From assembly GCA_963719225.1 (NCBI GenBank), contig CAVRAY010000001.1, forward strand, positions 224,001 through 288,000: 64,000 nt of DNA, read 5' to 3'. The stretch is from Thermoanaerobaculia bacterium (GTDB lineage: Bacteria; Acidobacteriota; Thermoanaerobaculia; UBA5066). A program made the translations under genes and the position numbers. Under the pieces are notes generated by a model. The model searched no databases. It saw only the letters and a program-made list of their open reading frames with translations, and was not told where the DNA came from. This document shows, one piece after another, positions 3,672 to 58,954 of this stretch; position 1 is the first letter of the stretch, and each line of letters opens with the position of its first letter.

Positions 3672-3755
3672 CGAAGACTCCTTCGAAGCCGCTCCGTCAG
3701 CAGGGGTGCGGTTCACGAGGAAGTGTCGACCGGAAGGACGAGCTTTCCCCTGCCG

Positions 3756-6700
3756 TCAGTACTCGGCCGCCGGGAGCATCCTCAGGACGCTGCCGTCGGA
3801 GGTCTTCCCGTCGTTCAGTACGCCGTACGCGAGCCAGGTGTCGTCGCCGGAGAGCCGTGTGACGACCGCGTAGGCTGCCGTCGTCGAGGCGGGCACCCCC
3901 GCGGTGTCGAAAACGGACGACCACTGCGTCCAGTCGCCCGGCTGGAGCGTGACGGTGACCGGTATGCCCACGGCCAGCGAGGTCGTGGCGTCGTAGAGGC
4001 GCACGGACAGGGAGAGCGGGATCTCCGAGCCCCCGCCCAGATGGACGACCGCCAGATTCGAGCGCACGGAGGCGTCCCGCGCGAGACCCGGCACGAGCGC
4101 CGAGATTCGCGCGCCGCCTCCTTGCGCCGCGGCCGGATAGGCGACGCCGAACGCGCCGCCGGTGGCCACATCGGTGTTCGGGGTCGTCGTGCGCGCGAGC
4201 GCGACGGTCTTCGGCGAATCGAGGTTGCCGAGGTTTCGGAACGCCACGGAAAGCGTGCCGGCCTGGGGACCGGTCGACGGATCCGGGATGTTGATCCCCC
4301 GTAACCTCAGGTACGCGAGGATGTCCGGAATCGTCGTCTGCTGGTGCGCGGCGAGCGTGAAGGTCACGACGGGGACGCCGGTCGAGGATCCGAATCCTGG
4401 CGCCGGCCGATAGACGAGGTCCACGGGCGTAGAGAAGTTCCCGTCGTTCGCGACCGTCAGCTCGGTCGTGTAATGCGATCCGGCGGCGCCGAACACGTCG
4501 AGGACGACGGGCACGACGAGCTTGCGTGCGGCCGCGAGTCCGCCCGGGCGATAGAGCGGCAGGATCGAGCCGTCGGAGGTCTTCGCGTCGTTCACGACGC
4601 CATATGCCGTCCACGCGCCGATCCCGCTCGTCCTCGTGATCTTCGCGTAGCCGTACGCAGGCTCCGCGAGGCCCGCCTGCAGGAGGACTCCGTTGAACTG
4701 CCTCCACTCGCCCCGATGCAGCGTCGTGACGAGGGGCGCACCCGAGGGCGCTCCGCTCTGGTCGTACACCTGTATCGAGAGCGTCGAGGTCCCGTCGCCG
4801 CGGCCCGGGAGATGACCGACCGCGAGATTGGACCGGGACGTGCCGGAGATGCTGCGCAGCCCGTAGACCGCCCCCTCGTCCTCGGCGGCCTCGAGGTCGG
4901 ACGGCGCGTCGAGGAACGTGCCGAAGCTGCCCGAGGCGCCGGCAGTGTAGGCACGGGAAAATGCATAGACGTCATCGGTTGAAGAGGCGGTGTTTGCGGC
5001 TGAGATCGAGACCGAGCCGGCCGTACCGGAAGGGCCGGGCGCGATCACGAGAGCGTGGTCGCGGAAGAACTGGAGGGCGTCCGCTGCGCGAATCTCCGAG
5101 GAGGGCGCGAGGTCCACCGAGACGGCGCCGCCCCCGGCAAGTCCGAAGTCGGGCGCGGGGAAGAACTCCACCAGAACCGTCGCGGGCGAGGCCGACCGAT
5201 TCCCGATCGTGAGGTCCGAGCGGAAGCGCGCTCCGGTGGCCCCGACGACGTCCAGGACCACCGGGATGTACTTCGTGGAGGAGGAAACCGGCGCCCGATA
5301 GAGGCCGCTCCCCGCCGTGCCCGTATACAGCTGCGATCCGTCGGCGCTCAGATGGACGACTCGCGCGTCGACGCCTGGCGGAAGGCCCGCATTCTCCGGC
5401 TGCCAGCCGCCGCTCGTCCTTCGGAGAACGCCCGCCGTTCCCCCGCCCGCGAACGCCTTTCCGCCGCCTGCGTCGAGGGACGTCACGAACGCGGTGCTCG
5501 CTCCGAAGTCGTCCTCGCGCCACTGGCCCGTCGACGAAAAGATCCCGCCGGACACGGGCGCGGCGAAGAGGACGTTCGCGTCACCCCCGAGCGCCCGGAC
5601 GCCCGCGGGTGCGCCGGAGACTGCCTGCCAGGTCTGCGCGCGGACGAAGAGGTTTCCGCTCACGGAGGCGTAGAGCTTTCCGGCGACTTCGCGCGTCGTC
5701 TGCACCGCTCCGTTCGCGGGGAGCCCCGCGTTGTCGGAAGACCACGTGCTGGCCACGAGCCGCCACATTCCCGCGTTCGACGTGCCGCCCGCGATGCTGC
5801 CGCCGGAGACCGCGGCGAGCGACGTGATCGAGACGCCGAGTGGCAAGCCGCTCTCGACGATCGAGGGCGGCGCCTGCAACCCCGGCCCGAGCCCCCAGGC
5901 GTAGAGGTGGCAGTTCGTCGCGGCGAAAAGGCTCAGCGCGTTGCTCGCGATTGCGCCCACGTTCCCGCAGCCTTCCGGGGCGAGATTCACGGCGGGAGCG
6001 AAATCCAATGCGAGGCCCGCGCCGTGCGCGGCCGCAGCGGTTACTCCGCCGACCGTTTTCACGTCCGAGATGGAGGCCGCCCAGAGGCCGGTTCCCGCGG
6101 GGCTCCACGATCCGCTGGAAAGCCGTGCGACGGGAGCGCCGGCCGTGCCGACGTAGAGATCGCTTCCCAGCGTGCCGAAGCTCTTCGCCGACGCGACGAG
6201 AAGACCCGCATTCGTGGCTTGCCAGGAGCCCAGGAACGAGAGAACTCCGGCGTCCGCGGTCGCCGCACGCAGAGTTCCGCCGGCACCCGTGATGGCGCGC
6301 ACGTCGTGCGCCCCGAAGCCGGAGATCGGGACCCAGGCTCCCCCGAACGAATAGAGCGTCTGGTCGGTGCCCGCATAGAGCGTGCCGTTCGCGACACCGA
6401 GGGCCTGGACCGTGGAGGTCGAGGGAAGGCCGGTCGAGATCGAGGTGACGGTCGCGCCCGCGTACTGCGCGGCGCCGCCGCGCAGGCCGACGACGAGATC
6501 GCCGGACGTGACGGCCGCGGCCGTCACGAGCCCGCCGGGATTCGCGAGGAGCGCCCACGATCCGGAGGAGCGCTTCGCGACGCCGAGTCCCGCGGCCCAC
6601 ACGGAGGTCCCGTCCGTCGCCAGGAGAGACGGAAAGACGAGGCCGGCGGGAAGGGCTTCGGCGCTCCATGTTCCGTCGGCGGCGCGCCTCCACACTTTTT

Positions 6701-6989
6701 CTCCGTCGGCCGCGTAGACGGTTTCGGCAACGGCGATCGACGAAATCCTCTGCGCCGAGAGCCCGTCGAAAGTCCACGTGCCGGCGTCCATGCGCCAGAC
6801 TCCGCGCGACGTGGCGGCCCAGAGAGTCGCGCCGCTTCCGGCGAGCGCGGGGACGTCCGCGCCGGGGAGCGTGTTCGCGGGAACGAAGACCAGGCCCGCG
6901 TTCGAGGGCAAAGCGGCCAGCAGAACCATAAGGAGCGCGACCCGGATGGCGGGGGCGGGCAAACCCCGGAACTCGAAATGTCGTCTCAT
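3756..6989 (-). CDS. Secreted beta-propeller protein with two C-terminal repeated domains
   Basis: Signal peptide; many LYAGT/W..GL propeller-type blades; two domains ending AYGV(V/L)ND.KTSDGS; start codon uncertain (ATG 6989 chosen). Confidence 0.8.
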   Translation of the reverse strand: MRRHFEFRGLPAPAIRVALLMVLLAALPSNAGLVFVPANTLPGADVPALAGSGATLWAATSRGVWRMDAGTWTFDGLSAQRISSIAVAETVYAADGEKVWRRAADGTWSAEALPAGLVFPSLLATDGTSVWAAGLGVAKRSSGSWALLANPGGLVTAAAVTSGDLVVGLRGGAAQYAGATVTSISTGLPSTSTVQALGVANGTLYAGTDQTLYSFGGAWVPISGFGAHDVRAITGAGGTLRAATADAGVLSFLGSWQATNAGLLVASAKSFGTLGSDLYVGTAGAPVARLSSGSWSPAGTGLWAASISDVKTVGGVTAAAAHGAGLALDFAPAVNLAPEGCGNVGAIASNALSLFAATNCHLYAWGLGPGLQAPPSIVESGLPLGVSITSLAAVSGGSIAGGTSNAGMWRLVASTWSSDNAGLPANGAVQTTREVAGKLYASVSGNLFVRAQTWQAVSGAPAGVRALGGDANVLFAAPVSGGIFSSTGQWREDDFGASTAFVTSLDAGGGKAFAGGGTAGVLRRTSGGWQPENAGLPPGVDARVVHLSADGSQLYTGTAGSGLYRAPVSSSTKYIPVVLDVVGATGARFRSDLTIGNRSASPATVLVEFFPAPDFGLAGGGAVSVDLAPSSEIRAADALQFFRDHALVIAPGPSGTAGSVSISAANTASSTDDVYAFSRAYTAGASGSFGTFLDAPSDLEAAEDEGAVYGLRSISGTSRSNLAVGHLPGRGDGTSTLSIQVYDQSGAPSGAPLVTTLHRGEWRQFNGVLLQAGLAEPAYGYAKITRTSGIGAWTAYGVVNDAKTSDGSILPLYRPGGLAAARKLVVPVVLDVFGAAGSHYTTELTVANDGNFSTPVDLVYRPAPGFGSSTGVPVVTFTLAAHQQTTIPDILAYLRLRGINIPDPSTGPQAGTLSVAFRNLGNLDSPKTVALARTTTPNTDVATGGAFGVAYPAAAQGGGARISALVPGLARDASVRSNLAVVHLGGGSEIPLSLSVRLYDATTSLAVGIPVTVTLQPGDWTQWSSVFDTAGVPASTTAAYAVVTRLSGDDTWLAYGVLNDGKTSDGSVLRMLPAAEY

Positions 6990-7090
6990 TTGGCGTGCCT
7001 CGGGCGCCCGAGAGCGCCTTTTTGCAGTGTACATGGCACGACCTGTGCGAATCACGCCCCTGGGGGACGGATTTCCAGAAGGAGAAAATC

Positions 7091-7414
7091 ATGAATCCAA
7101 AGCCCTCTTTCCGATGGTGCGCTACCGGGGCCGCGGCTCTGGCGGCCGCTCTTCTCGGTTCGTGTGTCGTTGGGCCTCCGCCGGGCGCCGTCTACGTGCG
7201 AACGCGTCCACCCGCTGACATCGTCGAGGTCCGGGGAGTGGCTCCGGGACCCGGCCATGTCTGGATCTCGGGCTACCACGCGTGGCGCGGCGGGGTCTAC
7301 GTCTGGGTGCCCGGACACTGGGACGCTCGTCCTCATCCGCGCGCCGTGTGGGTGCGCGGAAGATGGAGACAGCATCGCAATGGCTGGTACTGGATCGAAG
7401 GGCACTGGAAGTAA
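7091..7414 (+). CDS. YXWGXW-repeat lipoprotein
   Basis: RBS GGAG before ATG 7091; lipobox LLGSC; repeats HVWISGYHAW, YVWVPGHW, WVRGRW, YWIEGHW. Confidence 0.85.
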   Translation: MNPKPSFRWCATGAAALAAALLGSCVVGPPPGAVYVRTRPPADIVEVRGVAPGPGHVWISGYHAWRGGVYVWVPGHWDARPHPRAVWVRGRWRQHRNGWYWIEGHWK

Positions 7415-7423
7415 TCTCGCGCC

Positions 7424-8647
7424 ATTCGGTTCGATCCCGAGCGTCTGTTCGCCGACCCTCGCTACGCGGCCTACGCCGCGGCGGGGGTCGCGTCGGTCGA
7501 ACGAGGTACCTGCGACCCGATTTCCGAGGAGCTGGAGAGAGACTCTTCGAGTGGAAGAGGGGGAGGGAGCGAACGCGAGCTCACCGCCGCGTTCGCGCTC
7601 TCGACGCAGGGGCTTTCCTCTTTGACGGCGCGCCTCCCGAAAACAGAGTCGCTCCCCCGCGCGCTCGGGCAATTTCTATTCGAAGAAAATCTTCTCTCCA
7701 AGGCCCGCGCGAGGCGCCTTCTCGAAACGCTCGTCGAGACGGTCCGCGCGCTGCGGGCTGCGGCTGTGGAGGTCGTCGCGCTGAAAGGCGCGGCCCTGGC
7801 GTTCTTCCATTATCCGGATCCTGCCCTCCGTCCGATGGGGGATCTCGACCTCCTGCTGCGCGACCCGCGTCAGCTCGGGCAGGCGACCGCCGTCCTCGTC
7901 GGAGGCGGCTGGATCGCTCTCTTCGACACACCGCGCCACCGCGTCTTCGCACGGCCCGGCGAGCGCGTCGCGCGGCCCGCCGCCGAGGATCCGGAGAACC
8001 CGATCCGGCTCGAGATCCACACGTCCTTTCGCCTGCCCGTGCTCGGCGGCCTCTACGACGCGAGTGCGGCGCTGCGCGCCCAGTCGGAAACACGGGATGT
8101 GGACGGCACGGCCGTCGCGATCGCGGCTGGTGCCGCGCTGGTGCCGCACCTCCTCTTCCACGCCGCCGAGGACTTCGCGGGAAACGGGATCCGGGGGATC
8201 CAGGCGTACGACTTCCGCCTCCTCGCGCGGGCGGGCGGCGCTCTCGCGCCGGAGATTTCTGCGAATGAAAGATCGGGCGGAAGTCGCCGAGGAGCCGCCC
8301 CACTGCTGTATGCGGCGGACGCGATCGAGCGTCTCTTCCCTCTTACTTTCAAAGAAGTCTTTCTTTCTTCTCTCTCCTCTAACGTCAATCCGGCCCTGCG
8401 CGCGCGCGCAGCAGCGCTGCCGGCGCTGCGTTATTCGCGCCCCGCGCGCGGCTGGACGCGGGTGCTCCTGTCGCTCGTGGAGGGTCCCGTTCCGCGCGCG
8501 CGTTTTCTCATGCGCACGCTCTTTCCGACGCTGGGCGAAGTGAAGGCGAATGCGGCACCGGACGCGACGGGGTTGGCGCTCGCCGCGGCCTGGGTGCGCG
8601 TCCTCCTCGGCCGCGCCGGCCTTCGACGCCGCCGAGGGCCGCGATGA
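7424..8647 (+). CDS. Nucleotidyltransferase family protein (NTP_transf_5-like)
   Basis: Motifs VALKGAALAFFHYPDPALRPMGDLDLLL and LEIH; frame is open back to 7415, so the start may be ATT 7424 or TTG 7622. Confidence 0.8.
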   Translation: MRFDPERLFADPRYAAYAAAGVASVERGTCDPISEELERDSSSGRGGGSERELTAAFALSTQGLSSLTARLPKTESLPRALGQFLFEENLLSKARARRLLETLVETVRALRAAAVEVVALKGAALAFFHYPDPALRPMGDLDLLLRDPRQLGQATAVLVGGGWIALFDTPRHRVFARPGERVARPAAEDPENPIRLEIHTSFRLPVLGGLYDASAALRAQSETRDVDGTAVAIAAGAALVPHLLFHAAEDFAGNGIRGIQAYDFRLLARAGGALAPEISANERSGGSRRGAAPLLYAADAIERLFPLTFKEVFLSSLSSNVNPALRARAAALPALRYSRPARGWTRVLLSLVEGPVPRARFLMRTLFPTLGEVKANAAPDATGLALAAAWVRVLLGRAGLRRRRGPR

Positions 8648-10668
8648 AGGGGTCGGTCGGCATCGTCGCCCGCGCCGCACTCGCGGGAGCGCTCGCGATG
8701 ACGGCCTTCGGAATCGTCGAGATCTGGTTCACGGAGCTCTCCGTTTGGGCTTTTCACCGGGGCGCCTTCGCGCCGCTCGAGCGCCCCTTCGCCGCGGTGC
8801 TCTTCCTCCTCTATCCGCTCCTGGGAGCGCTGGCGGCGTCCTTCGCCGCGGCAGCCGCGGGAGCTGCGGGAGTCGCCCTCCAGGGCCGTGCGCTCGGCGC
8901 GCTCGTCGTCCTCGTCGTCCACTTCGTCTTCCGCCTTCCGGCGTACGCGGGCGGCTCCCAGGTCCTTCTTTTCGGGTTGAACGCCATCCTTTTCGGGACC
9001 TCCCTCGCGGCGACCGTGTTCCCGCGTGCGCCGCGCGCGCTCGATGTCTTCACGGGCCCCTGGACGGTCGCGCTGCTTCTCGGCGCCCCGCCCTGGGTGA
9101 TGACCGAGCTCCTCGCGGAGGCGTCCCGGCCCGTGCGTGCGCTCGGATTCGCGACGACGGTCTGCGCCGTCGCCGGGTCCGCTCTCGCGGCTGCGCGCGT
9201 CAACCCCCGTCCCCGGGTCTTCGCCGGGGCGAGCGCGGCCGCCGTGCTGGTGACGCTCGGCGCCGTCTTCGTCGCCGATTCCGGCGCTCCGCGGCAGGCC
9301 GCGGAGACGGGCGCGGCGGTCCCGCGCGGGCCGAACGTCCTTCTCGTGGTCCTCGACACCGTGCGCGCGGACCACCTCTCGCTCTACGGATATCCGCGCA
9401 AGACGATGCCGCATCTCGAGCGCTTCGCGGCGACGGCAACCGTATACACGCGGGCGATCGCGCCGTCGAACATGACGCTCGCGACGCACGCGTCTCTTTT
9501 CACGGGTCTCGCCGCGAGCGAGCACCGTGCGCATTACGACGCGGGACGCCCGGCCGGGCGGCCGCTCGGTACCTCCATGCCCACGCTCGCCGAGAACTTC
9601 GCGAAGAAGGGCTATGACGTGAGCAGCGTGGCCGGGAACTACGGCTTTCTGGGATCTGGCTTCGGCCTGGACCGCGGCTTTTCCTGGAACGATGCACGGG
9701 CACGGCGGAGCACGCTGGGGGTGATCCCCGCGGTCTCGGTCCGCGGCGCGTTCCGCCGGTTCCTTTGCCGGACGCTCGGGCTGTGGCCCGAGAGCGACAC
9801 GCGCGCCCGCGGCGCGGACGAGATCACAGATCTCGCCATCGGCCGGATCGACCGCGCGAAGACCCTCGGCAGCCCGTACTTCCTCTTCGTGAACTACTTC
9901 GACGCGCACGAACGCGTCCTCGTCCCTCCTCCGTGGGCCGGATCCTTCTCCTCGCGAGACGCGCGTCCGACTGGGCCGCTCTTCGAGGCGCGGCTCCGCG
10001 AGATGAACGCCACCGGCCGCGTCTCGATCGATTCCCGAGACCGCGAAGATCTCGTCGCCCGATACGACGAGACCCTCGCTTACCTCGACGCGTCGCTCGA
10101 CCGCCTCCTCGCGCACGCGGCCGGGTCGGACGGACAGGCGGATACGCGGATCGTCGTGACCTCGGACCACGGGGAGGCCCTGGGGGGGCATGACGCGATC
10201 GGCCACGGCTCGAGTCTCTATGACGAGCAGGTGCGTGTGCCCCTCGTCGTGCGCCAGCCCCGTCAGGCGAGCGGGCGCGTGATCGGGGAGCCCATCGGGA
10301 TCGCGGGCGTCTACGAATTCCTTTCGGGCGGATCGCCTGAAGTGCGTGTGGAGGACCCCGTCGTGTCCGAGTCCTTCCCTCTCGTCCCGACGCCCGAGAA
10401 GCCCGGCGTGCGTGGCGGTCGCGCGCTCTTCTCGGGGCCGCACGTCTATGTCCGGGGGATCGACGGGCGCGTCGAGCTCTACGACATGCGCGAGGATCCG
10501 GGCGAGTTGCGGGATCTCTCGGCCGTTCCCGACTTTCGAGGCGCCGTGGCTGGCGCATCAACCCGTCTCGACCGCTGGATTGCGGCCCATCCTCCGCAGC
10601 GCGCGCCCGAGACGCGCGAGAGCCGCGAGGACCGGGCGCGGCTTCGCGCGCTGGGATACCTGCGATGA
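8644..10668 (+). CDS. Membrane-anchored sulfatase-like hydrolase/transferase
   Basis: N-terminal TM helices; PNVLLVVLDTVRADHL, TLATHASLFTG, FVNYFDAHE, TSDHGE, C-terminal LRALGYL; ATGA overlap with upstream gene. Confidence 0.85.
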   Translation: MKGSVGIVARAALAGALAMTAFGIVEIWFTELSVWAFHRGAFAPLERPFAAVLFLLYPLLGALAASFAAAAAGAAGVALQGRALGALVVLVVHFVFRLPAYAGGSQVLLFGLNAILFGTSLAATVFPRAPRALDVFTGPWTVALLLGAPPWVMTELLAEASRPVRALGFATTVCAVAGSALAAARVNPRPRVFAGASAAAVLVTLGAVFVADSGAPRQAAETGAAVPRGPNVLLVVLDTVRADHLSLYGYPRKTMPHLERFAATATVYTRAIAPSNMTLATHASLFTGLAASEHRAHYDAGRPAGRPLGTSMPTLAENFAKKGYDVSSVAGNYGFLGSGFGLDRGFSWNDARARRSTLGVIPAVSVRGAFRRFLCRTLGLWPESDTRARGADEITDLAIGRIDRAKTLGSPYFLFVNYFDAHERVLVPPPWAGSFSSRDARPTGPLFEARLREMNATGRVSIDSRDREDLVARYDETLAYLDASLDRLLAHAAGSDGQADTRIVVTSDHGEALGGHDAIGHGSSLYDEQVRVPLVVRQPRQASGRVIGEPIGIAGVYEFLSGGSPEVRVEDPVVSESFPLVPTPEKPGVRGGRALFSGPHVYVRGIDGRVELYDMREDPGELRDLSAVPDFRGAVAGASTRLDRWIAAHPPQRAPETRESREDRARLRALGYLR

Positions 10669-10961
10669 CGGAGCAGCGTGTCCTCGCGCGCGGCGAGGTG
10701 CACGTGAACGAGCGCTTCGGCCCGGACGTCGTCAACCGCGGCGCGCTCCTCTACTCGTGTGAATGGGACGGCGGCGTTTTCGAGTCCGGAGTGATGTGGG
10801 GCGGTCTGTTCAGGTCGGGCCGATTTCTCGGCGGCGCGTTCTGGGGAGGATGGTGGCTCGGCGGCGCGTGGGAAGGCGGCTTCTGGCACAGCGGTTTCGG
10901 GCCTGACGGGCGCTATCTTTCGCGCGACGACGCCCCGGTTCCGCGGAGCGGAAGCGCGTGA
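10665..10961 (+). CDS. Small aromatic-x-G-G-x pentapeptide-repeat protein (copy 1)
   Basis: WDGGV FESGV MWGGL FRSGR FLGGA FWGGW WLGGA WEGGF WHSGF; 4-bp overlaps on both sides; paralog at 12865-13146. Confidence 0.85.
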   Translation: MTEQRVLARGEVHVNERFGPDVVNRGALLYSCEWDGGVFESGVMWGGLFRSGRFLGGAFWGGWWLGGAWEGGFWHSGFGPDGRYLSRDDAPVPRSGSA

Positions 10962-11833
10962 CGAGTGTCCTCACCGTCTTCACGGCTTCGGCGCGGCTCG
11001 ACCTCGCGCGCCTCTGGCTGGCCTGCGTGACACGGGCCTTCCCTCGAGGCGAGGTCGTCGTCGAGATCTTCGACGACTCGAAGGACGGCGTTCTGACGCC
11101 GGGCCTTCTCCCGGACGCCGCCGTCCTTCGTCCCGGTCCCTCGCGTCGCGACTTTCAGGAGGCCTACAACGACGCGCTCCAACGCGCGTCGACTCCGTTC
11201 CTCGTCCTCCTCGACACGGACGCGTTCGCGACCTCGGCCCACGTCTGGCCGGCGGTGCGCGAGCGTTTCGCGGACGAAGGCGTCGCCGCCGTCTCGTGCG
11301 CGCCGCGAACGGCGACGCCGGGACACGACACGGTCGCCCTCGTGCTGAGGGTGTCGGCCTATCGCGCGGCGCTCGCGGACGTGCCCGGCGGCTTTCTTCC
11401 ACGCGCCGACCGGCCGGAGCCCGGCAGCCCCCCGGGGCGCTGGTCCGGCCACGACACGGGAGACCTTCTCACGCGCGCCGTCTGTGAGTCGGGGGGGAAG
11501 CACGAGGTCCTCCATCTCGAGGAGGCCGGTTCCTTCGTGCGTTTCGACGCTCTCACGAACGTGCACCTCCTCGCCATCTGGGCCGGCGCCAATCCGCTCC
11601 TTTCGCTGGTGCGGCGTGACGCCTATTTTCGGGAGGGGTGTCTCGGGAACCTCGCACTCAGGCCGATTTACGAAAGGAGGTTTCCCGAAGGGCCGCCCTT
11701 CGCGTTCGGCCTCTCCCGCGCGATGCTCTGGACGGCGCTCGCGTCCGGCGGCCTCGCCACGCTGCGCGACGGAATGAAGCGGGCACGGCGGATGCGCGCC
11801 GGCGCCCGGCGCGTCGAGGAGTTCCTGCGCTGA
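10958..11833 (+). CDS. Putative GT-A-fold glycosyltransferase-like protein (copy 1)
   Basis: EIFDDS, FLVLLDTDAF (DxD), VAAVS; paralog of 11843-12868. Confidence 0.65.
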   Translation: MTSVLTVFTASARLDLARLWLACVTRAFPRGEVVVEIFDDSKDGVLTPGLLPDAAVLRPGPSRRDFQEAYNDALQRASTPFLVLLDTDAFATSAHVWPAVRERFADEGVAAVSCAPRTATPGHDTVALVLRVSAYRAALADVPGGFLPRADRPEPGSPPGRWSGHDTGDLLTRAVCESGGKHEVLHLEEAGSFVRFDALTNVHLLAIWAGANPLLSLVRRDAYFREGCLGNLALRPIYERRFPEGPPFAFGLSRAMLWTALASGGLATLRDGMKRARRMRAGARRVEEFLR

Positions 11834-11842
11834 AGAAAGGCG

Positions 11843-12868
11843 TCAGTCGCGGCGGCCGAAGAGGCGCCGCGCCGCGGCCCATGCGTGCGCTTCGAGGATG
11901 CGTCGCGGCGGGAGGACGCGCGGAATGCGCAGGGCGCCCGGCGTGAGCCCCTCCTGGGCGGCGAGCCGGGCGAGCGCGCGGTCGGACCTCTCGAAAGTGG
12001 CGACGAGGCGGGCGAGGAGCGTCCGGTCGCGGATCGTCGCGAACGCCGCGCGCAGCACCTCGGGAGTCGCGCTTCCCGAAAGGTGCGTGTCGCTGTACGG
12101 GGCCGAAAAGAGCGCGGGTTGACGGGCCGCCGCAAACGGCGCGCCGAAGACCTTTCGATAGAGGGATCCGAGAAGGAGATTGTCGTACGCCCCCATCGCG
12201 AAGTACGGCTTCTCGGCGAAGAGCTGGTCGAAGCGCGGTCCGAGGAGGTCGCCGAAGACCTCGCGCGAGGCGCGCACGACGGTCGTGCCGTGAAAGTCCG
12301 CGAGGCGCGAGGCGGCGACGTCGGGCGCCACCTCGACGATCACCTTGCCGCGCGCGCGCAAGGCGATCGCCGCGCGGTCCCCCGGCTGACGGTTGATCGC
12401 GTGCGGCCACCGTTCGATCCCTTCGTAGGAGGGCGCGAGGACGGGCGCCGGAAGAGCGCGGTAGGTCTCGCGCCGCGCGAGAAGCGCGAAGACGCCGGGC
12501 TGGTCGGTGCGGCGGACCAGAGAGACTCCCGCGACCGTGGGGTCCTCGAAGTGGCCGAGGAGGGAGGCGACCCAGCCCCCGTCGAGGATGAAGACGTCCG
12601 CGTCGAGAAGAAAGAGAACGTCGCACGGCCGCTCGAGCGCGAGGTCGTAGAAGGCGATGAAGTCGAGAGCCTCGAGAGAGGGCGCGAGGAGCGTCGCTCC
12701 GGGAAAGAACCTCGGCTCGAAGCCCTCGGGCGTCGTGTCGCGGAAGAGAAGGACTTCCACCTGGGCCCCGACGCGTTTCAGCGCGGGAAGGAGGTCCCGC
12801 GCTACGGACCGGAACCAGAGACGGGCGAGATCCGGATACCGGTGCGCGGAGGCGACGACGACCTTCAA
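11843..12868 (-). CDS. Putative GT-A-fold glycosyltransferase-like protein (copy 2)
   Basis: DLARLW, LFLLDADVF (DxD), F.DPTVAGVS; TTG start overlaps the stop of the upstream peptide gene. Confidence 0.65.
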   Translation of the reverse strand: MKVVVASAHRYPDLARLWFRSVARDLLPALKRVGAQVEVLLFRDTTPEGFEPRFFPGATLLAPSLEALDFIAFYDLALERPCDVLFLLDADVFILDGGWVASLLGHFEDPTVAGVSLVRRTDQPGVFALLARRETYRALPAPVLAPSYEGIERWPHAINRQPGDRAAIALRARGKVIVEVAPDVAASRLADFHGTTVVRASREVFGDLLGPRFDQLFAEKPYFAMGAYDNLLLGSLYRKVFGAPFAAARQPALFSAPYSDTHLSGSATPEVLRAAFATIRDRTLLARLVATFERSDRALARLAAQEGLTPGALRIPRVLPPRRILEAHAWAAARRLFGRRD

Positions 12869-13146
12869 GGATGCACGGTGCGGGGGTGGTATTTCCCGTC
12901 GGGACCGAAGCCGTGCTCCCAGTCGCCGCCCTGCCAGTCACCGCCCAGCCACACGCCGCCCCAGAACACGCCGCCTCGAAACGTGCCGGACCGGAAGAGC
13001 CCGCCCAGCATGACGCCCGATTCGAAGACGCCCCCGTCCCACGTGCACTCGAGGAGGACGGCGCCGCGGTTCACCGTCGCGTGGCCGAACGACGTCTTGT
13101 GGTGAAACTCGCCTTCCTGGAGAACGAGAACGGGCGCGTCGGGCAT
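12865..13146 (-). CDS. Small aromatic-x-G-G-x pentapeptide-repeat protein (copy 2)
   Basis: WDGGV FESGV MLGGL FRSGT FRGGV FWGGV WLGGD WQGGD WEHGF GPDG; paralog of 10665-10961. Confidence 0.85.
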   Translation of the reverse strand: MPDAPVLVLQEGEFHHKTSFGHATVNRGAVLLECTWDGGVFESGVMLGGLFRSGTFRGGVFWGGVWLGGDWQGGDWEHGFGPDGKYHPRTVHP

Positions 13147-13147
13147 G

Positions 13148-14227
13148 TCACGCGATGATACGGCGCAGGTCCGGCACGAGGCGGAAAGCCTTCTCTGCGA
13201 TCGACGCGAGCGGTGAGATCACGTGCTTCGTCACGCCTCCGACGGTGAGCGCCTCCGCGGGAATTCCCGCCGCGTCGAAAACCGCCGCATGCCTCTCGTC
13301 CGCGAGAACCGGACGCCCTTCCACGAGGACGAGCAGGACATCCCGCGGCGCGGCTTCGAGGAGCGGCGCGTCGAGGGCGACGACGTCCGCGCGCGAGCCC
13401 GGCTCGAGGGACGCGGGGGGAAGGAAGAGCCGCCGTCTCGCCGTGGCTCCGACCGCTTCCTCGAGCCGCGCGTCCTCGAGGAAGCCGAGCGCGCGCGCGG
13501 CGCGCAGCTCGTCGAGCAGGGTCCCTTCGCCGCTGACGAGGGCGTCGGTCCCGAGGAGCACGTCGATTCCCGACGTGAAGAGAGCCTGCGGCGCCGTCCT
13601 TCCGTAGAGGAAACCGTTCGAGGTCGGACACCACACGGCGGCGCAGCCGGCGGCCGAGAGCCGGACGACTCCCGCCGGGGAGGCGCCCACGAGATGGACC
13701 GCGACCAGCCGGTCCGAGAGAAGGCCGCGCCGCGCCGCCTCGTCGATCTCGGAAGCCGATCCTTCGTCGGTTCCTTCCGCTAGGTGAAGCGCCCAGGGGC
13801 CCGCGGCGGGAGGAGAGTCGGCATCTTCGAGGGCGTCGACCGCGGGGATGGGCACGACCTTGACGGGGAAGTCCCGGTCGAATTCCGCCTCCCACGGGTC
13901 GTGGTGGACGACCGAGATCGCGCCGCCGAGGATGTTCTTGAGCGCCCCGAAGAGCAACGCGTCCCGTCTGGGCAGCAGTTTCCGGCGCTCGAGATCGTGG
14001 GCGAAGCGCTCGTGGAGATCCGTCCCCCATGCGGCGGCGCTCGCATAGGGCGGCGCGCCGAGCCGCGGGAGGTGATTGCGGTGGAGGTGGTCGTGCGCAT
14101 TCACGAGCCCCGGAAGAAGAACGGCGCCTCCGAGATCGAGCGTGAGGTCGGCGGTACCGCCGGCTGCCCGGAGCCCTCCTTCGGCGACGTCCAACGTCGC
14201 GTTTTTCGCCTCGAGGCGCAACCTCAT
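13148..14227 (-). CDS. Amidohydrolase family protein (metal-dependent)
   Basis: LPGLVNAHDHL, LHLAEG, AVH, CPTSN, LGTD motifs; ATG 14227 overlaps upstream TGA. Confidence 0.85.
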   Translation of the reverse strand: MRLRLEAKNATLDVAEGGLRAAGGTADLTLDLGGAVLLPGLVNAHDHLHRNHLPRLGAPPYASAAAWGTDLHERFAHDLERRKLLPRRDALLFGALKNILGGAISVVHHDPWEAEFDRDFPVKVVPIPAVDALEDADSPPAAGPWALHLAEGTDEGSASEIDEAARRGLLSDRLVAVHLVGASPAGVVRLSAAGCAAVWCPTSNGFLYGRTAPQALFTSGIDVLLGTDALVSGEGTLLDELRAARALGFLEDARLEEAVGATARRRLFLPPASLEPGSRADVVALDAPLLEAAPRDVLLVLVEGRPVLADERHAAVFDAAGIPAEALTVGGVTKHVISPLASIAEKAFRLVPDLRRIIA

Positions 14228-14910
14228 TTCGAGAAGCGCAACGCGAGGAGCAGCGGCAGGCCCAGGTCCGCGGCGTACCGGTCGAGCTTCTTCGCACGCT
14301 CGTAGAAGGGCCGCACCTCCACGCCCACGCCAAGCGAGCCCGCCGCGTCGAAGGTGAGCCCCGCCTCCCGCGCGGCGGCTTCGTGGGCGTCCGCGTCGTG
14401 CACGACGTGCTCGACGACGTGCGCGGCTCCGGAAGCGTCGCGAAAGGCGCGCGCGTGCCCGCGACGGATGGCGTCCGGGTGGAAGTCCGTCAGGACGGCA
14501 TATCCGCCCTTGCGAAGGACGCGCGCGAGCTCGCGGTACAGCGGCGCGATGTTCAGGAGGTGCCCGACCGCGAGCCGGCACCACACCACGTCGAAGCGCT
14601 CGGCGGCGAAAGGCAGGGCCCTGAGGTCGCCGCCGGCGGTCGTGCGCGGCCGCGCGGGATCCCGGCGTCCCGCCGCGAGCATCTCGAAGACCAGGTCCAC
14701 CCCGCAGGCGCTCTTCGGAGTCTGCCCCTTCGGGAAGACGAGCCGGCGCGCCGTGCCGCAGGCCGCGTCGAGAAGGCTCTTCCCCTGAATGTCGTGCGAG
14801 AAGAACCGGACGGCGAGCGAGTCCATCGTCGTCAGGGGGTTTTCCACGTCGTACGTCGCCGCCCACAGCCGATACGCGGACGCCGTCCCGAGCGGAGGCT
14901 CGGCGCTCAC
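14224..14910 (-). CDS. Class I SAM-dependent methyltransferase (BioC-like)
   Basis: AYRLWAATYD, LLDAACGTAR, GVDL, GDLRALPF, FDVV, LARVLRKGG; GTG start overlaps rSAM stop. Confidence 0.85.
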   Translation of the reverse strand: MSAEPPLGTASAYRLWAATYDVENPLTTMDSLAVRFFSHDIQGKSLLDAACGTARRLVFPKGQTPKSACGVDLVFEMLAAGRRDPARPRTTAGGDLRALPFAAERFDVVWCRLAVGHLLNIAPLYRELARVLRKGGYAVLTDFHPDAIRRGHARAFRDASGAAHVVEHVVHDADAHEAAAREAGLTFDAAGSLGVGVEVRPFYERAKKLDRYAADLGLPLLLALRFSK

Positions 14911-16274
14911 GCGGGCGGCCTCAGGTGTCCATAGGCCTGTGAATCCGCAGGCACGAGCCCTCCCTTGAGCCGCCGCGCGAAGTCTTCCACACGATCCTTG
15001 AGAGGACGTGACAGCCACGGCACGCGCGGGTCCTCGTGCGTCATCCAGCCGACCCACTCGGGCGTCGTCCATTCCTCGAGGGTCGCGGGCGTGGTCGAGA
15101 GCGGGTCGACGTTTCCATAGGTCGCGCGGCGTTGGGGAGTCGGCGTGTAGAAATACGTGATGAGCTTCATGTCCGGATTCACGGCTGCCAGCTTCTCGAC
15201 GAACGCGAGAGTGGTCTCGACGTCCCGTCCGGGCTCGTCGGGATCGCCGAACATGAACGAGAACTCGGGAACGATGCCGAAGCGGCGGGACTTCTCCGCG
15301 AGGGCGAGCGTCTGGACGGTCGTGAGGTTCTTCGACATCTTCCTGAGAGTCTCGTCGGAGCCGGACTCGGCGCCGAAGTAGGCCATTGTGAGGCCAGAAC
15401 TCCGGAGAGCTTCCCACGTCCGGTCGGAGAATCGCAGCATCACGTCGATCCGGGCCTCGCACCACCACTTCAGCCCGAGCGGCGTCATCCTCTCGGCGAG
15501 CTCCAGGGCGCGGGACTCCTTGAGAAAGAAATTGTTGTCGTAGAAATGCACGGCGTCCATGCCGTGGCGCTTCACGAGGTACGCGAGGTTCTCCTCGATG
15601 CGCGCGGGCGACTCGAATTTCTGAAGGCTTCCGAGCGCCGCGATGACGCCGCAGAAGTTGCAGGTGTACGGGCAGCCGATCGAGGCCTGGTAAACCCCGT
15701 TTCGTTTCCCGAAAGCAGTCGGCTGGAGGTAGTCGTCGACGTCGATCCGGGTCCACGGCAGGGCCGGGAACGCGTCCGGGCCTTCCCAGGCGCGCTCCGG
15801 GTTGAGCCGCGCCTCGCCTCTCTCCTTCCAGCCGAGGCCCTGGACGGCGGCGGGGTCGAGACGTCCCGCCAGGACATCGAGCAGCTCGACGAGCGTGCGC
15901 TCGCCCTGGCCGCGCACGAGGAAGTCGACGTAAGACGCGCGCAGCACGGGGGCGGGGTAGAGACTCGGGAAATAGCCGCCCCAGACGATCGGGAGCATCG
16001 GGAAGCGCTCCTTGAGCCGTCGCGCGAGCGGCGCGGCCGAGACGAGCTGCGGCCCCGGCATGACGGTCATCGCGACGAGCGACACGGGATCGTCCGTGAG
16101 CGCGCGCATCCCGACGCAGGTCGCGACCGCCGCCTCGAGGTCGGAGTCCGGCGGGTTGCCGTCGAGGATCTCCCACGAGACGCCGGAAGGCAGAGCGGCG
16201 CCGAGCGTGAGGAGAGAGAGCGGGAAGCGCCGGTTTTTCGGGCGCGTGGCGCGGGGGTTGAGGAGGAGGATCAC
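14907..16274 (-). CDS. B12-binding domain radical SAM protein
   Basis: N-terminal cobalamin-binding domain (FPLSLL, VWGGYFPSL, VRGQGE); ASIGCPYTCNFC (CxxxCxxC); GAESGS. Confidence 0.9.
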   Translation of the reverse strand: MILLLNPRATRPKNRRFPLSLLTLGAALPSGVSWEILDGNPPDSDLEAAVATCVGMRALTDDPVSLVAMTVMPGPQLVSAAPLARRLKERFPMLPIVWGGYFPSLYPAPVLRASYVDFLVRGQGERTLVELLDVLAGRLDPAAVQGLGWKERGEARLNPERAWEGPDAFPALPWTRIDVDDYLQPTAFGKRNGVYQASIGCPYTCNFCGVIAALGSLQKFESPARIEENLAYLVKRHGMDAVHFYDNNFFLKESRALELAERMTPLGLKWWCEARIDVMLRFSDRTWEALRSSGLTMAYFGAESGSDETLRKMSKNLTTVQTLALAEKSRRFGIVPEFSFMFGDPDEPGRDVETTLAFVEKLAAVNPDMKLITYFYTPTPQRRATYGNVDPLSTTPATLEEWTTPEWVGWMTHEDPRVPWLSRPLKDRVEDFARRLKGGLVPADSQAYGHLRPPA

Positions 16275-16281
16275 GCGCGCC

Positions 16282-17091
16282 TCACGCTCTCCGCGCCACC
16301 CACAGGTCGAAGCGCGAGGGCTCCCGCCTTCCGAGGAGACGGGCCCTGAATCCCCGGGTTTCGTAGGCGAGCGGATAGCGGACGCGGCTCTTCTCGAACG
16401 ACAGCCCTGCGGGCGCGGCGGCGCGAACGAGGATTTCCGGCGTGAGGTATTCGACCGGCTGAAGCGCGAGAAGATCCGCCGCGAGGTCGCGAAAGATCCG
16501 CTCCGTGTCGCGCTTCTTCTCCTCGGCCATGGCCTCCCCCGACGCGGACCGCGCGTAGAAAGGAGAATCGAGTATAGCCACGCGTCCGCCCGGGACGGAG
16601 GCGCGCGCGGCCTCCCCCAGAACGCTTCCGAGATCCTCGGCGAGGTGCAGAGATGCGTCGAAGACCACGAGGTCGAAGACCGCGTCGGGGAAGGGAAGCG
16701 CGTCGAAGGACCCGGAGACGCGGCCGAACATGCGCGGCAGATGCCGCCGGAACGCCGCGCCCGCGGCGAGACCATCGACGTCGTCGATCCGCAGGTCGAC
16801 GGCGACGCACCGGTGCCCGTCGCGGCCGAGGCGCGCGCACAGCCAGCCGTTTCCCGCGCCGAGGTCGAGAACCGCGAGCGCGCGGCCGCGCTCCTTCGCG
16901 AGCGGCGCGACGACGCGGCTCCTCAAGGCCTCGAACGTGCGGGCACGAACCGCCCACTGGTCGGCGAGGGGGCCCGCGGTCACGTACGGCAACGCGAGGA
17001 GCTCGGCTTCTCCCCCCGCGCCACGGCCTTCCGTGCGCCTCAGTTGCGCGTAGGCGCGGGCCCACCGTCGCCGGGAAGATTCGGCGTTCAT
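16282..17091 (-). CDS. Class I SAM-dependent methyltransferase
   Basis: VLDLGAGNGWL, AVDL, FDALPFPDAVFDLVVF, PGG. Confidence 0.88.
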   Translation of the reverse strand: MNAESSRRRWARAYAQLRRTEGRGAGGEAELLALPYVTAGPLADQWAVRARTFEALRSRVVAPLAKERGRALAVLDLGAGNGWLCARLGRDGHRCVAVDLRIDDVDGLAAGAAFRRHLPRMFGRVSGSFDALPFPDAVFDLVVFDASLHLAEDLGSVLGEAARASVPGGRVAILDSPFYARSASGEAMAEEKKRDTERIFRDLAADLLALQPVEYLTPEILVRAAAPAGLSFEKSRVRYPLAYETRGFRARLLGRREPSRFDLWVARRA

Positions 17092-17936
17092 GCGGGAACC
17101 GCCGTCCTTTCGAAGTCGCAAAGCACGTGGTCGCCGAGCAGCGCCAGCGGCCGCGCCGCCAGGCGGTCGAGGCGCTCGAGCGCGCCGAGGAGGCGCGGGA
17201 AGCGCGACGCGGCGGGCTCTGCCGAGCTCGGCGGCACGAAGATCCCGATGCCGAGCGTCCTCCGGAGGCGGAACCACGGCGCGAAGGAGGAGGCGAGCGT
17301 CCGCGGCGAGGGATAGGTCACGGTGAACGTTTCGCCTCCCACGCGCGCCGGCGCGGGGGAACCTACAAACCTCCGGAACGCCGCGCGCGCCCTGCCCCGC
17401 GCCAGGAGGACGAGGACCTCGCCGGGGCAGCTCGGGCCGAAGAGGACGAGAAGGGCGCGCCGTCCCGTGGGAAGGAGGCGCGCAAGGCCGCGGGCGACGG
17501 AACCATGGTCCGCCACGCAGTTCAAAGACGCGAAGTTCGAGAACGCGCCGTCGAAGATCGTGCCGCTGCGCGCAGCCGCCCACGTATCGAGCTCCTCGAG
17601 CGAAACGCGCTCCGACGTGACGCGTTCGCCGAGAGCCGCAGCGCGGGCTTTCTCCGCGGCGCGTCCCACCATCGCGGGCGCTCCATCCGTGACGAGAACG
17701 CGGCGTCCACGCTCGGCGAGGAAGATCGCGTCCTCGCCGGTGCCGCCTCCGAGCTCGATCAGCGTGGCGCCCACCGGAAAGGCCTCGAGAAGCGCGCCCC
17801 GCACCGCGCGACGCTGGGCCGCGACGCTCCTCCACCCCGAGAACCGCTCGTCGAACGAGGGAGCGAGGGCGTCGAAGGCGCGGACCGCCGGGGAGAGATG
17901 ATGCATCGGCTCTGAAGTGACGTCCCCGAAGCTCAC
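17088..17936 (-). CDS. Class I SAM-dependent methyltransferase
   Basis: AFDALAPSFD, LIELGGGTGEDA, FDGAFSNFASLNCV; start GTG 17936 or ATG 17906. Confidence 0.88.
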   Translation of the reverse strand: MSFGDVTSEPMHHLSPAVRAFDALAPSFDERFSGWRSVAAQRRAVRGALLEAFPVGATLIELGGGTGEDAIFLAERGRRVLVTDGAPAMVGRAAEKARAAALGERVTSERVSLEELDTWAAARSGTIFDGAFSNFASLNCVADHGSVARGLARLLPTGRRALLVLFGPSCPGEVLVLLARGRARAAFRRFVGSPAPARVGGETFTVTYPSPRTLASSFAPWFRLRRTLGIGIFVPPSSAEPAASRFPRLLGALERLDRLAARPLALLGDHVLCDFERTAVPA

Positions 17937-17940
17937 GCGT

Positions 17941-19422
17941 TCATACGCGCATGAGATCGATGGGAGTCGGATCGGCGGGAGGGCGGGGCGGGGCGGCGCG
18001 GAATCCGGCTTCGATCGCGTCGAGCATGCTCCACCGCTCGTCCAGGGCCTTTGCGCCGTTCTGCCCCTCGTCACCCGGCGACGTGTAGGCGGTGACCTCC
18101 GCGTGCAGAAGGTCGCGAACGTGCCGGTAGAAAGACTCCTCGTACGTTCCCTTGAACATCATCGCGAGGTCGTCGCTGTCGCGCCAGTTCGAGCGCGGGC
18201 CGAGCTGTCCCTTGACCGTCTCGTAGAATTTCGTGCCGGGAAGCGGATACGACACCGAGACGCCGATGTCGTCCGGCCGCTCCTCGAGGACGAGCGCGCG
18301 CGTCGCGACGAGGTCCTCCCACGTCTCGCCCGGATAGCCGAGCTGGAGGAACCACGCGGGGCGGATTCCGTGGCTGCGGAGGAGGCGCGTCGCCGTGCGC
18401 ACCTGTTGGATACGCGTGCCCTTTTCCATCGCGTCGAGGATGTTCTGCGCGCCCGACTCGACGCCCATCCACACTTCCTCGGCCCCCGCGCGCGCGAGGG
18501 CGGCGACGGCCGAGGGCGTCATGAGGTCCACGCGCGACTGCATCATGAACGGCACGCGGACGCCTTCCTGCGCGAGGGCTTCGGCATACGACTCGATCCA
18601 CCGCGGCGTCAGGCCGAAGATATCGTCCGCGAACCAGAGGTGGTCGGGATGGACGTTCTCGGCGAGCAGGCGCACTTCACGGGCGACGTTCGCGGGGCTG
18701 CGCTGGGCGTAGCGGGTGCCGTAGAGCGGCTTCGCGCACCAGTTGCAGTGAAAGGGGCACCCGCGCGTCGTCACGACGTTCCACGAAAGGCGGCCATGGG
18801 CGTTTTTCCAGGCCGTGCGGTACGCGTCGGCGTCCGCGAGGTCCCAGGCGGGAAAGGGAAGCGCGTCGAGGTTCTCGACGAAGGGCCGGATTCGGGTTCT
18901 CTTCGGCGCGGTGTCGGCCGAGCTCCCGGGGAGCGCGAGTCCGGGGATGCCCTCGAGCACCGCCCTGGGATCGGCCGTCCACGCCTCCGCGAGCTCGGCG
19001 AACGTGACCTCCGGCTCGCCGAGGATCACGGCATCCGCTCCGGCGGCGAGGTAGGACGTCGCATGGTCCGTCGCGTCCGACCCGTTCACGGCGACCAGGC
19101 GCGAGCGCGCGTGGGCCGCGGCCACCATCGCCAGGGCCGCCTCGCGGTTTCGCGTCGTGCACATTTTCGTCAGGAAGTTGAAGTTGTCCTCGAGGATCCC
19201 GACGATCGAGGCGTCCGAAGTATCGAGGGCGCGCACGAACTCGGCCTCGCTTCCAGCGAGCATCGCGTCGAAGAGCTCGACGTCGAATCCGCGCTCGCGC
19301 AGAACCGAAGCGACGAGGAGAGTCGCGAGGGGCGGATACGGTTTCATCTTCCGCCACTGCTTCGCGTCGTTTGCGAGGTAGTAGGAGTGCGCGAGGAGAA
19401 CCTTCGGCCGGGCTCCGCACAT
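17941..19422 (-). CDS. B12-binding domain radical SAM protein
   Basis: HSYYL..D.KQW..MKPYPPLATL, ILGEPE, TTRGCPFHCNWC (CxxxCxxC), FADDIF, GVESG, YPLPGT. Confidence 0.92.
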   Translation of the reverse strand: MCGARPKVLLAHSYYLANDAKQWRKMKPYPPLATLLVASVLRERGFDVELFDAMLAGSEAEFVRALDTSDASIVGILEDNFNFLTKMCTTRNREAALAMVAAAHARSRLVAVNGSDATDHATSYLAAGADAVILGEPEVTFAELAEAWTADPRAVLEGIPGLALPGSSADTAPKRTRIRPFVENLDALPFPAWDLADADAYRTAWKNAHGRLSWNVVTTRGCPFHCNWCAKPLYGTRYAQRSPANVAREVRLLAENVHPDHLWFADDIFGLTPRWIESYAEALAQEGVRVPFMMQSRVDLMTPSAVAALARAGAEEVWMGVESGAQNILDAMEKGTRIQQVRTATRLLRSHGIRPAWFLQLGYPGETWEDLVATRALVLEERPDDIGVSVSYPLPGTKFYETVKGQLGPRSNWRDSDDLAMMFKGTYEESFYRHVRDLLHAEVTAYTSPGDEGQNGAKALDERWSMLDAIEAGFRAAPPRPPADPTPIDLMRV

Positions 19423-19480
19423 CGCCCGCGAGCCTAATTCAGTCGTTTTGAAAAAAGTGTGACGTGGATTGCCAATTCGG

Positions 19481-20503
19481 TTACGTGACGAGACTTTTCA
19501 ACAAAGCGACGGCGCCCTCGAGGTCGGAGGCGCCGTCCAGCCGCATCCCGCCCGCGCCGGCCCAGGCGCGCGCGACGGCGCCGGATCCACCGTCGACGCT
19601 TTCCTGGGGAATCTCGCCTTTCGTGAACTCCTCGACGAACTCCGGACCCGCGAGCTGGACGAGACGCGCTGGTCCGGGAACGCGCGGTCCGAGGAGCAGC
19701 GTCGAAACGCGTCGGGCCGCGCGCGCTTCGGGACGCGAGGCCGCGAAGAGATCGATGCGGCGCTTCACCTCGCCGCCCGAGAACCCGGCCTCGGTGCCCG
19801 ACTGGAGGCCCAGAAGAGCCGCGCTGTCCTCGCGCAGCGTCAGCTCGCGGACCGAGGAGGCGAGCTCGTCCGGATCGGCGCGCGAGACGAGCACGCTCTC
19901 GTCTCCGAGCACGCCGAGCCCGGCGGCGTGCGCGGCGGCCACGAGCGTGGACTTTCCGGCGTCCGAGGCCCCGCGCACCACGACGGCGCCCTTCGGACCC
20001 GTGACGGCGCCCGCGTGCAGCGCGCGCCAGCCGCGGCGCGCGAGCAGGATCGCGGCGGGGGCCTCGAGGAGCGTGCGGGCGAGGAAAGAACGAAGAGAAG
20101 AAGAGGAAGATTTCTTAGAAAGGGGAAGATAAGAAAGAAGAGAAGCCGCGATGCGCGCGTCGACGCGCGCTCGCTCGAGATTGATCGTGACTTCCAGGGC
20201 GCCGGGGACCGCGCAGCGAAATTCCGACGCCTCGTGCACCCACTGCAGTCTTTCTTCGAGTGAAAGAATGGGGTCGGCGTCGCGGCGCGGCGAGCTGGGA
20301 GCCGCCACACCGCCCTTTTTCGCGCCTTCCAAGAAATCTTCGTCTTCGTCCCGCGTAACCTCGATCGCGATCGCCGCGCGCGCATGGCCCGTGGGCGCCG
20401 GCGCCCAGAGCTTCTCCGCCAGCTCGAAGAGGAGCGGCTCTTTCGACGTGAGCGCCACGACATCTCCGGGCGGCCCAAAGAGCCGTGTCGTTCCGTCCGC
20501 CAT
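19481..20503 (-). CDS. HPr kinase-related P-loop kinase
   Basis: LHAGAV....GAVVVRGASDAGKSTL followed by VLGDE, the HprK-like signature; start uncertain. Confidence 0.8.
   Translation of the reverse strand: MADGTTRLFGPPGDVVALTSKEPLLFELAEKLWAPAPTGHARAAIAIEVTRDEDEDFLEGAKKGGVAAPSSPRRDADPILSLEERLQWVHEASEFRCAVPGALEVTINLERARVDARIAASLLSYLPLSKKSSSSSLRSFLARTLLEAPAAILLARRGWRALHAGAVTGPKGAVVVRGASDAGKSTLVAAAHAAGLGVLGDESVLVSRADPDELASSVRELTLREDSAALLGLQSGTEAGFSGGEVKRRIDLFAASRPEARAARRVSTLLLGPRVPGPARLVQLAGPEFVEEFTKGEIPQESVDGGSGAVARAWAGAGGMRLDGASDLEGAVALLKSLVT
20106..20126. repeat. Dispersed AT-rich motif GAAGATTTCTTAGAAAGGGGA
   Basis: Identical 21-mer at 25053-25073; core also at 51182, 58042 and inverted at 25099, 58116. 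Confidence 0.75.
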
Positions 20504-33532: not shown

Positions 33533-33581
33533 TTCGCCACGCGACACGAGACCAGAAAAAAGAGGACAAAAGGAGCACTCC

Positions 33582-46954: not shown

Positions 46955-46960
46955 CGCGCC

Positions 46961-47932: not shown

Positions 47933-47941
47933 GCCCAGCTC

Positions 47942-48367: not shown

Positions 48368-48372
48368 GCGCG

Positions 48373-58943: not shown

Positions 58944-58954
58944 GAGGACTAGGG

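Follow-up and report, generated by a model that had tools for sequence, protein, structure and literature searches.

Bactofilins are small, stand-alone right-handed beta-helices with a repeat of roughly six residues, and an HPr-kinase homologue and a PF14907 nucleotidyltransferase form a tailoring pair for lasso peptides. Pentapeptide proteins of the Rfr fold are, in the sections of the papers cited here, defined by at least eight contiguous pentapeptide units, are classically four-sided (PMC8145042) and use outward residues in protein contacts (PMC8145042, PMC13506006). In the TibA/TibC system (BAHT), as covered in the cited section of PMC4358343, a co-encoded transferase works with a beta-helix protein: TibC, a heptosyltransferase that forms a dodecamer and has been compared with MurG (GT-B type), acts on a large secreted adhesin. 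Here, we describe a gene pair in a 64,000-nucleotide stretch of DNA from a Thermoanaerobaculia bacterium (assembly GCA_963719225.1, contig CAVRAY010000001.1, positions 224,001 to 288,000; referred to as the window), in which a tiny protein of glycine/aromatic five-residue repeats, PEN, is encoded together with an enzyme predicted to have the GT-A glycosyltransferase (GT) fold. We lean, with some reserve, towards PEN being a non-catalytic partner subunit of the neighbouring enzyme. A literature search, in which subscription papers were thinly covered, found no description of a PEN-GT family, and the accessible parts of the Knotted Solenoid (PMC13123833) and lipocone (PMC12419801) papers do not describe it. 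The window contains two such pairs:

10665-10961, plus strand: PEN_A, 98 residues, glycine/aromatic pentapeptide beta-helix protein (fold predicted), from its open reading frame and alignment with PEN_B
10958-11833, plus strand: GT_A, 291 residues, predicted GT-A-fold (GT2-like) enzyme, from its DxD motif and profile match to 6yv7
11843-12868, minus strand: GT_B, 341 residues, predicted GT-A-fold enzyme, from its structural model and likeness to BcsA
12865-13146, minus strand: PEN_B, 93 residues, glycine/aromatic pentapeptide beta-helix protein (fold predicted), from its structural model

An earlier note on this DNA, made from the sequence, had located these four reading frames, their 4-bp overlaps and their common motifs correctly. 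Each PEN gene overlaps its enzyme gene by 4 bp (GTGA for PEN_A/GT_A, TTGA for PEN_B/GT_B); the ATG of PEN_A overlaps the stop of a sulfatase-family gene and its own stop overlaps the GT_A start, and the two enzyme genes end tail to tail, 9 bp apart. PEN_A and PEN_B are the only two strong PEN matches in the source genome. As the note had concluded from synonymous differences, the PEN genes are under purifying selection: 47 of 62 core residues are identical in PEN_A and PEN_B, 21 of these 47 are encoded by different codons, and the Nei-Gojobori ratio of nonsynonymous to synonymous substitution rates (dN/dS) is 0.17 between the two copies and 0.20-0.40 between PEN_B and 13 relatives. The downstream enzymes are paralogous, as proposed, sharing DLARLW and the DxD motif, with 37% identity over 146 residues in BLASTP (E 1e-11) and a strong profile-profile match (99.9%, E 4.6e-31).

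The linkage between PEN and the enzyme was followed in 147 loci, taken from the best 80 of 86 genome matches and the best 80 of 152 metagenome matches and mapped by six-frame profile mapping; remote homologues outside Acidobacteriota are under-sampled, and frameshifted loci (L007, L026, L033, L044, L046), left as they are, can shift counts by one or two. The named relatives are mostly Acidobacteriota, the closest, among the matches listed, being Thermoanaerobaculia. Five of the 162 PEN copies lie at contig ends, and 156 of the 157 others either immediately precede a GT or are fused with one (the exception is in L025). Seen from the enzymes, PEN lies immediately ahead of 58 of the 59 GT_B copies in genome loci, and a contig end cuts the remaining one. 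The 44 GT_A copies in these loci are more varied: 18 have their own upstream or N-terminally fused PEN, 1 has a C-terminally fused PEN, 22 stand behind a PEN-GT_B pair without a PEN of their own and 3 have no adjacent PEN. Among 91 longer PEN homologues, 78 join PEN to a GT, in either order (56 PEN+GT_A, 10 GT_A+PEN, 6 nucleotidyltransferase+PEN+GT_A, 5 PEN+GT_B and 1 sulfatase+PEN+GT_A); of the rest, 6 carry PEN fused to a different upstream gene, 5 are unrelated proteins of low-complexity repeats and 2 are mis-called or frameshifted. Tandem arrays in the order PEN, GT_A-PEN, GT_B, GT_A occur in L012, L044 and L101, with a PEN-GT_A-PEN fusion in L044.

Across 401 Acidobacteriota genomes, the PEN, GT_B and GT_A profiles match the same 9 genomes, from 5 genera. 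In G120 and G322, the three genes lie on three separate contigs, which shows co-retention without proximity, and adjacency is not obligate. The functional coupling suggested in the earlier note is therefore borne out, with homologues linked to GT genes and the small protein matching no characterised family; of its obligate two-gene unit, the tight coupling stands and the strict one-to-one pairing does not, given the GT_A copies behind a PEN-GT_B pair and the two genomes with three contigs. What emerges is a repeat family and two GT-A subfamilies, all still without a name, that behave as a single unit in a phylum that is mostly uncultured, together with a sprawling, uncharacterised operon cut down to a two-gene core, although the reach is limited to 9 of the 401 sampled genomes. 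A GT with a tiny required beta-helix subunit, or a right-handed beta-helix of three by five residues, would, if true, each be new to specialists.

GT_A and GT_B are predicted to be GT-A enzymes on the basis of fold, DxD motif and an acidic residue at the base position. The GT_B model (predicted local distance difference test score, pLDDT, 94.3) superimposes on BcsA (Z 17.1, root-mean-square deviation (rmsd) 2.6, 175 aligned residues), WrtF (Z 15.0) and PcManGT (Z 14.0) and gives 80 Foldseek matches at E<=0.001, whereas GT-A-like nucleotidyltransferases reach lower values in this structural comparison (Z ~11-12); the GT_A profile matches PcManGT (PDB 6yv7) with E 1.6e-6. In GT_A, D86-T-D88 and D169 are invariant in 42 of 42 aligned homologues, and in GT_B, with D89-A-D91, D89 is conserved in 99% and D91 in 93%, and residue 164 is acidic in all 72 rows (D in 74%, E in 26%). 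Judged by position, GT_A 169 and GT_B 164 are likely the catalytic base. PF00535 matches GT_A at 16.9 bits (E 0.006; cut-off 23.3) and does not match GT_B, and some relatives carry this domain. The enzymes thus resemble the GT2-like enzymes BcsA, WrtF, SpsA and PcManGT in a GT-A fold over ~190 residues, the DxD motif and the acidic base position, but are only 11-18% identical to the closest solved structures and differ from these four in a helical C-terminal part without a clear match and in their constant beta-helix partner.

None of Pfam, NCBIfam, PHROG and PADLOC gives a curated match to PEN. In 258 distinct sequences, residues 29-78 follow a small-x-large hydrophobic-x-x register of ten contiguous pentapeptide units, enough for the Rfr fold by number, with A29, C34 and thereafter Gly at position i-2 (Gly in 8 of 10 units) and L31, W36, F41, M46, F51, F56, F61, F/W66, W71 and W76 at position i. 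The nine consecutive units reported earlier correspond to W36-W76, the third having Met instead of an aromatic residue, and the tenth, centred on L31, lies ahead of them. The AlphaFold2 model of PEN_B alone is all-beta (pLDDT 95.6), in keeping with the tight beta-helix that had been proposed. It superimposes with an rmsd of 2-4 on bactofilins, TibA and pentapeptide proteins and of ~10 on left-handed helices, structures whose handedness we take partly from general background and partly from the pentapeptide literature, and PEN is therefore predicted to be a right-handed beta-helix. Covariation within the chain peaks at a spacing of 15 residues (p 0.002), with 10 borderline (p 0.056) and 20 at p 0.78, the p values coming from within-register shuffles, which do not remove relatedness; when PEN is aligned with 20-residue coils, the matched ranges correspond to 13.6-18.1 residues per turn in seven comparisons. 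From these two observations we infer a three-sided helix with ~15 residues per turn. In this predicted helix, Trp and Phe would fill the core and Gly would make room for them, R27-E42 and D37-R52, stacked 15 residues apart, would form ion pairs, and the outward positions 30, 32, 45, 47 and 62 of one face are 88-96% hydrophobic (position 60, 50%). A Foldseek search with the model found no match at E<=0.001 in the PDB and BFVD.

The register invites comparison with the Rfr proteins (PF00805/PF13576), to which PEN is similar in its five-residue spacing, small i-2 residue, large hydrophobic i residue and predicted right-handed helix. PEN nevertheless lacks the [STAV][DN][LF][STR]G consensus, a curated Pfam match and, by prediction, the four-sided 20-residue coil, and therefore falls outside the Rfr pentapeptide family despite its similar register. 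PF13576 scores 15.7 bits against PEN (cut-off 27), and only 3 of 54 members match it at all (best E 0.019); with Gly at i-2 and Trp at i, the difference from the classical A(D/N)LXX family that the earlier note had pointed out is real. PEN further differs from Rfr proteins and CipG in having Trp, Phe or Met at i and a predicted turn of ~15 instead of 20 residues, in its length of ~95 residues and in being dedicated to one GT family.

In our favoured reading, the GT-A enzyme would move a sugar from a nucleotide sugar onto an acceptor, and PEN would dock on it by the outward hydrophobic stripe (30/32, 45/47, 60/62), thereby either stabilising the enzyme or presenting the acceptor. PEN may act in trans, such that GT_B and GT_A can share it, and extra GT_A copies would tend to gain a PEN of their own. 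The partner role is suggested by the fusion of PEN at either end of the enzyme, its repeated recruitment by extra GT_A copies, the lack of an invariant hydroxyl acceptor and the conserved hydrophobic face, and has a precedent in the pentapeptide protein CipG, which, according to the cited part of PMC13506006, binds GlgC by one face.

Several points weigh against it. The contact between PEN and the enzyme is putative, and covariation between the chains, computed on 177 pairs (effective 43 and 28), does not exceed chance (p 0.31); with this control failed, the pairs PEN 62/GT_B 197 and PEN 47/the matching GT_A helix are scattered hints. The enzymes in the window have no curated family match, and their transferase role is itself predicted. 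PEN-derived patterns were used to find the loci, some of which are near-duplicates, and the PEN-positive genomes come from few genera, so that neither set of counts is independent. Fusions also link PEN to other genes that happen to precede it (4 to an HprK-like kinase, identified by sequence likeness, 1 to a nucleotidyltransferase and 1 to a sulfatase), so that, with operons packed this tightly, some may have arisen simply by loss of a stop codon. Lastly, in G120 and G322 PEN stands among radical SAM (S-adenosylmethionine) and methyltransferase genes and not beside a GT.

The main rival is that PEN is an acceptor or carrier, glycosylated by the GT and with the attached group then tailored by the kinase, nucleotidyltransferase, methyltransferases and radical SAM enzymes, a reading we consider doubtful but credible. 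It would suit a PEN-GT_B pair that is self-contained in varied contexts, and among the neighbours scanned no further candidate for a substrate gene recurred. Beta-helix substrates with co-encoded transferases exist, as the cited section on TibA/TibC documents (PMC4358343), and TibA is a structural neighbour of PEN (Z 7.4, rmsd 3.5); the PEN-GT pair differs from that system in its GT-A enzyme and in a PEN of 93-98 residues that has no autotransporter domain and is often fused. Conservation can be read either way: C34 (100%), R27, R52 and R89 (95-97%) and N26 (92%) are conserved, which would suit an acceptor, but C34 and N26 sit at inward register positions, the arginines fit the predicted ion pairs, and none of the 258 sequences' Ser, Thr or Asn positions is invariant (S43 79%, S53 70%, T24 85%). 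Fusion of PEN at either enzyme end in 78 proteins would moreover be unusual for a substrate, and no signal peptide is visible by eye. The evidence thus leans towards the partner side of the earlier note's alternative of partner/scaffold or substrate, without settling it. A wider proposal, to which we give as little credence as to the carrier reading itself, is that PEN is a portable acceptor-delivery module or protein carrier built on a right-handed, three-sided, 15-residue-per-turn helix with an aromatic core, and that PEN and GT_B would be a self-sufficient two-gene glycosylation system, to which larger operons would add the kinase, nucleotidyltransferase and B12 radical SAM methylases, yielding a new type of glycoconjugate in Acidobacteriota.

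Unlikely, in our view, is a role as a general pathway adaptor or scaffold that would gather several enzymes besides the GT and may, in the manner of bactofilins, stack end to end. The best low-rmsd structural neighbours are indeed bactofilins (6ria, Z 7.9, rmsd 2.2, 76 aligned residues, 8% identity; 2n3d, Z 7.2, rmsd 2.8), although a Z below 8 may merely reflect a common arrangement, and the bactofilin Pfam family is not among the matches of 54 PEN members at E up to 1. PEN is like them a small stand-alone helix, by prediction right-handed, and is unlike them in its five-residue repeats, its frequent fusion to enzymes and the missing sequence match. Fusions to the kinase, nucleotidyltransferase and GT, and the position of PEN in G120 and G322, would fit a scaffold; its retention with GT_B alone where other pathway genes were not found, and the radical SAM enzyme in genomes without PEN, speak against one. 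That the pair is a toxin-antitoxin-like or anti-phage cassette, with PEN inhibiting a toxic GT, is highly improbable, since, for all its overlapping small gene, patchy occurrence (9/401 genomes), varied contexts and viral clusters as the third ESM Atlas hits of both proteins (0.89, 0.97), the four proteins have no PADLOC match, the GTs have no relative in viral contigs, phage genomes or PHROGs and most Thermoanaerobaculia copies lie inside biosynthetic operons. A defence-island context was likewise rejected, with 5 of 81 neighbours matching PADLOC, all generically (two kinases, a reverse transcriptase, a sigma-54 activator and one small nucleotidyltransferase).

With PEN as a partner subunit, PEN and GT_B would form the minimal unit, which in this genome would feed a pathway with a kinase, a nucleotidyltransferase and methylation. 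At many Terriglobia and Bryobacterales loci, the PEN-GT_B pair stands among unrelated genes. Five genomes of this kind yielded no orthologue of GT_A, of the second radical SAM enzyme or of MT2 (completeness is not given, and part of these searches had no positive control), and in four of the five no orthologue of the first radical SAM enzyme was found, for which the control genome G406 scored E 6e-111. This first enzyme occurs in 32 of 401 genomes, 8 with PEN and 24 without, and G091, from the window's genus, retains the PEN-GT_B pair without it. Given this separate occurrence, the methylation and PEN-GT modules are separable. Among close relatives, L003, L009, L075, L077, L078 and L079 have an intact PEN-GT_B pair in a locus without radical SAM genes, kinase or GT_A module. 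In the stand-alone pairs L062, L134, L135, L137, L139 and L147, a conserved non-coding stretch with TTGACA and GGATACT lies <=170 bases upstream of PEN, and in L050, L051, L053 and L132 a -10-like box lies just ahead of the PEN ATG, which suggests that stand-alone pairs have their own, possibly leaderless, promoter. An Rfam scan of 17 stand-alone loci gave one tRNA and nothing else.

The two modules of the window had been described as an inverted duplication, of which the convergent orientation holds and duplication as a unit does not. GT_A and GT_B are reciprocally monophyletic (clades of 47 and 57 rows, FastTree support 100), each with several lineages, whereas both window PEN copies fall in one clade of related genomes (98/92), with PEN_A in a subclade (100/99) with fused PEN-GT_A proteins. 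The phylogenies therefore indicate that the GT split is old, that the PEN duplication is younger and that the module was not copied whole. A recent inverted duplication is ruled out by these old subfamilies and by the longest inverted repeat in 8000-15000, 39 nucleotides at 72%. PENs linked to GT_A occur in several separate clades; of the 5 changes, strong branches force 4, one of them a frameshift mislabel in L026.

PEN also resembles phage low-complexity proteins with G-G-x-F-x and W-x-x-G-x repeats (weak BFVD hits), but their repeats are degenerate, of variable length and without the PEN caps. Long repeats of these types, without Pfam match, occur in phage or phage-like sequences (L159:5911-7314, L161:3-428, L162:5866-6378; P0138, P0140, P0143, P0144), possibly the same solenoid in another role; the phage-side matches of PEN are low-complexity repeats only, and no GT was found in 5 viral repeat-protein loci. 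For GT_B (window 11843-12868), the ESM Atlas returned a 134-member, mostly viral cluster of 262-residue proteins with a feature likeness of 0.97, a lead not confirmed in viral contigs, phage genomes or PHROGs, where no sequence relative was found.

GT_A and GT_B are the last genes of two converging operons. The plus-strand run reads nucleotidyltransferase, sulfatase-family protein, PEN_A and GT_A; the minus-strand run reads kinase, two B12 radical SAM enzymes, three methyltransferases, amidohydrolase, PEN_B and GT_B:

7622-8647, plus strand: PF14907 (NTP_transf_5) nucleotidyltransferase (Pfam match), in relatives fused to PEN and GT_A
8644-10668, plus strand: membrane-anchored sulfatase-family protein (domain match), directly upstream of PEN_A
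13148-14227, minus strand: amidohydrolase-family protein (domain match), 1 bp upstream of PEN_B
14224-14910, 16282-17091 and 17088-17906, minus strand: three SAM methyltransferases (domain matches)
14907-16274 and 17941-19422, minus strand: two B12-binding radical SAM enzymes (domain matches)
19481-20503, minus strand: HprK-like kinase, head of the operon (TIGR04352, E 3.9e-7, below cut-off)

As in the lasso-peptide tailoring pairs, both a kinase and a PF14907 enzyme flank the PEN-GT pairs here, but the PEN-GT_B pair also occurs without them; no lasso cyclase or PqqD-type family was seen among the scanned recurring neighbours, and no dedicated search for short precursors was made. No sigma-70 promoter or convincing terminator pattern was found in 6500-21000. 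Ahead of its called TTG, the nucleotidyltransferase gene continues in an open frame as far as the stop of a WXXGXW-repeat gene (window 7414-7622), and its relatives have a longer N-terminus; judging from the sequence, translation may begin further upstream or at a non-standard start, or the gene may have been shortened. The adjoining WXXGXW-repeat, lipoprotein-like gene (PF12779; 6995-7414, plus strand) remains beside a flanking large secreted-protein gene where cluster genes have been lost (L009, L077, L079) and is therefore probably not part of the PEN-GT system. Two large secreted-looking proteins without Pfam match flank the cluster (828-6929, 20791-25014), and the same flanks hold a 1407-residue protein with 13 carboxypeptidase-regulatory-like repeats. 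Further along the window, 33227-33878 contains two tandem paralogous genes of ~100 residues each, and 46508-61424 is, judged by eye from the translations, an ordinary division and cell wall gene cluster.

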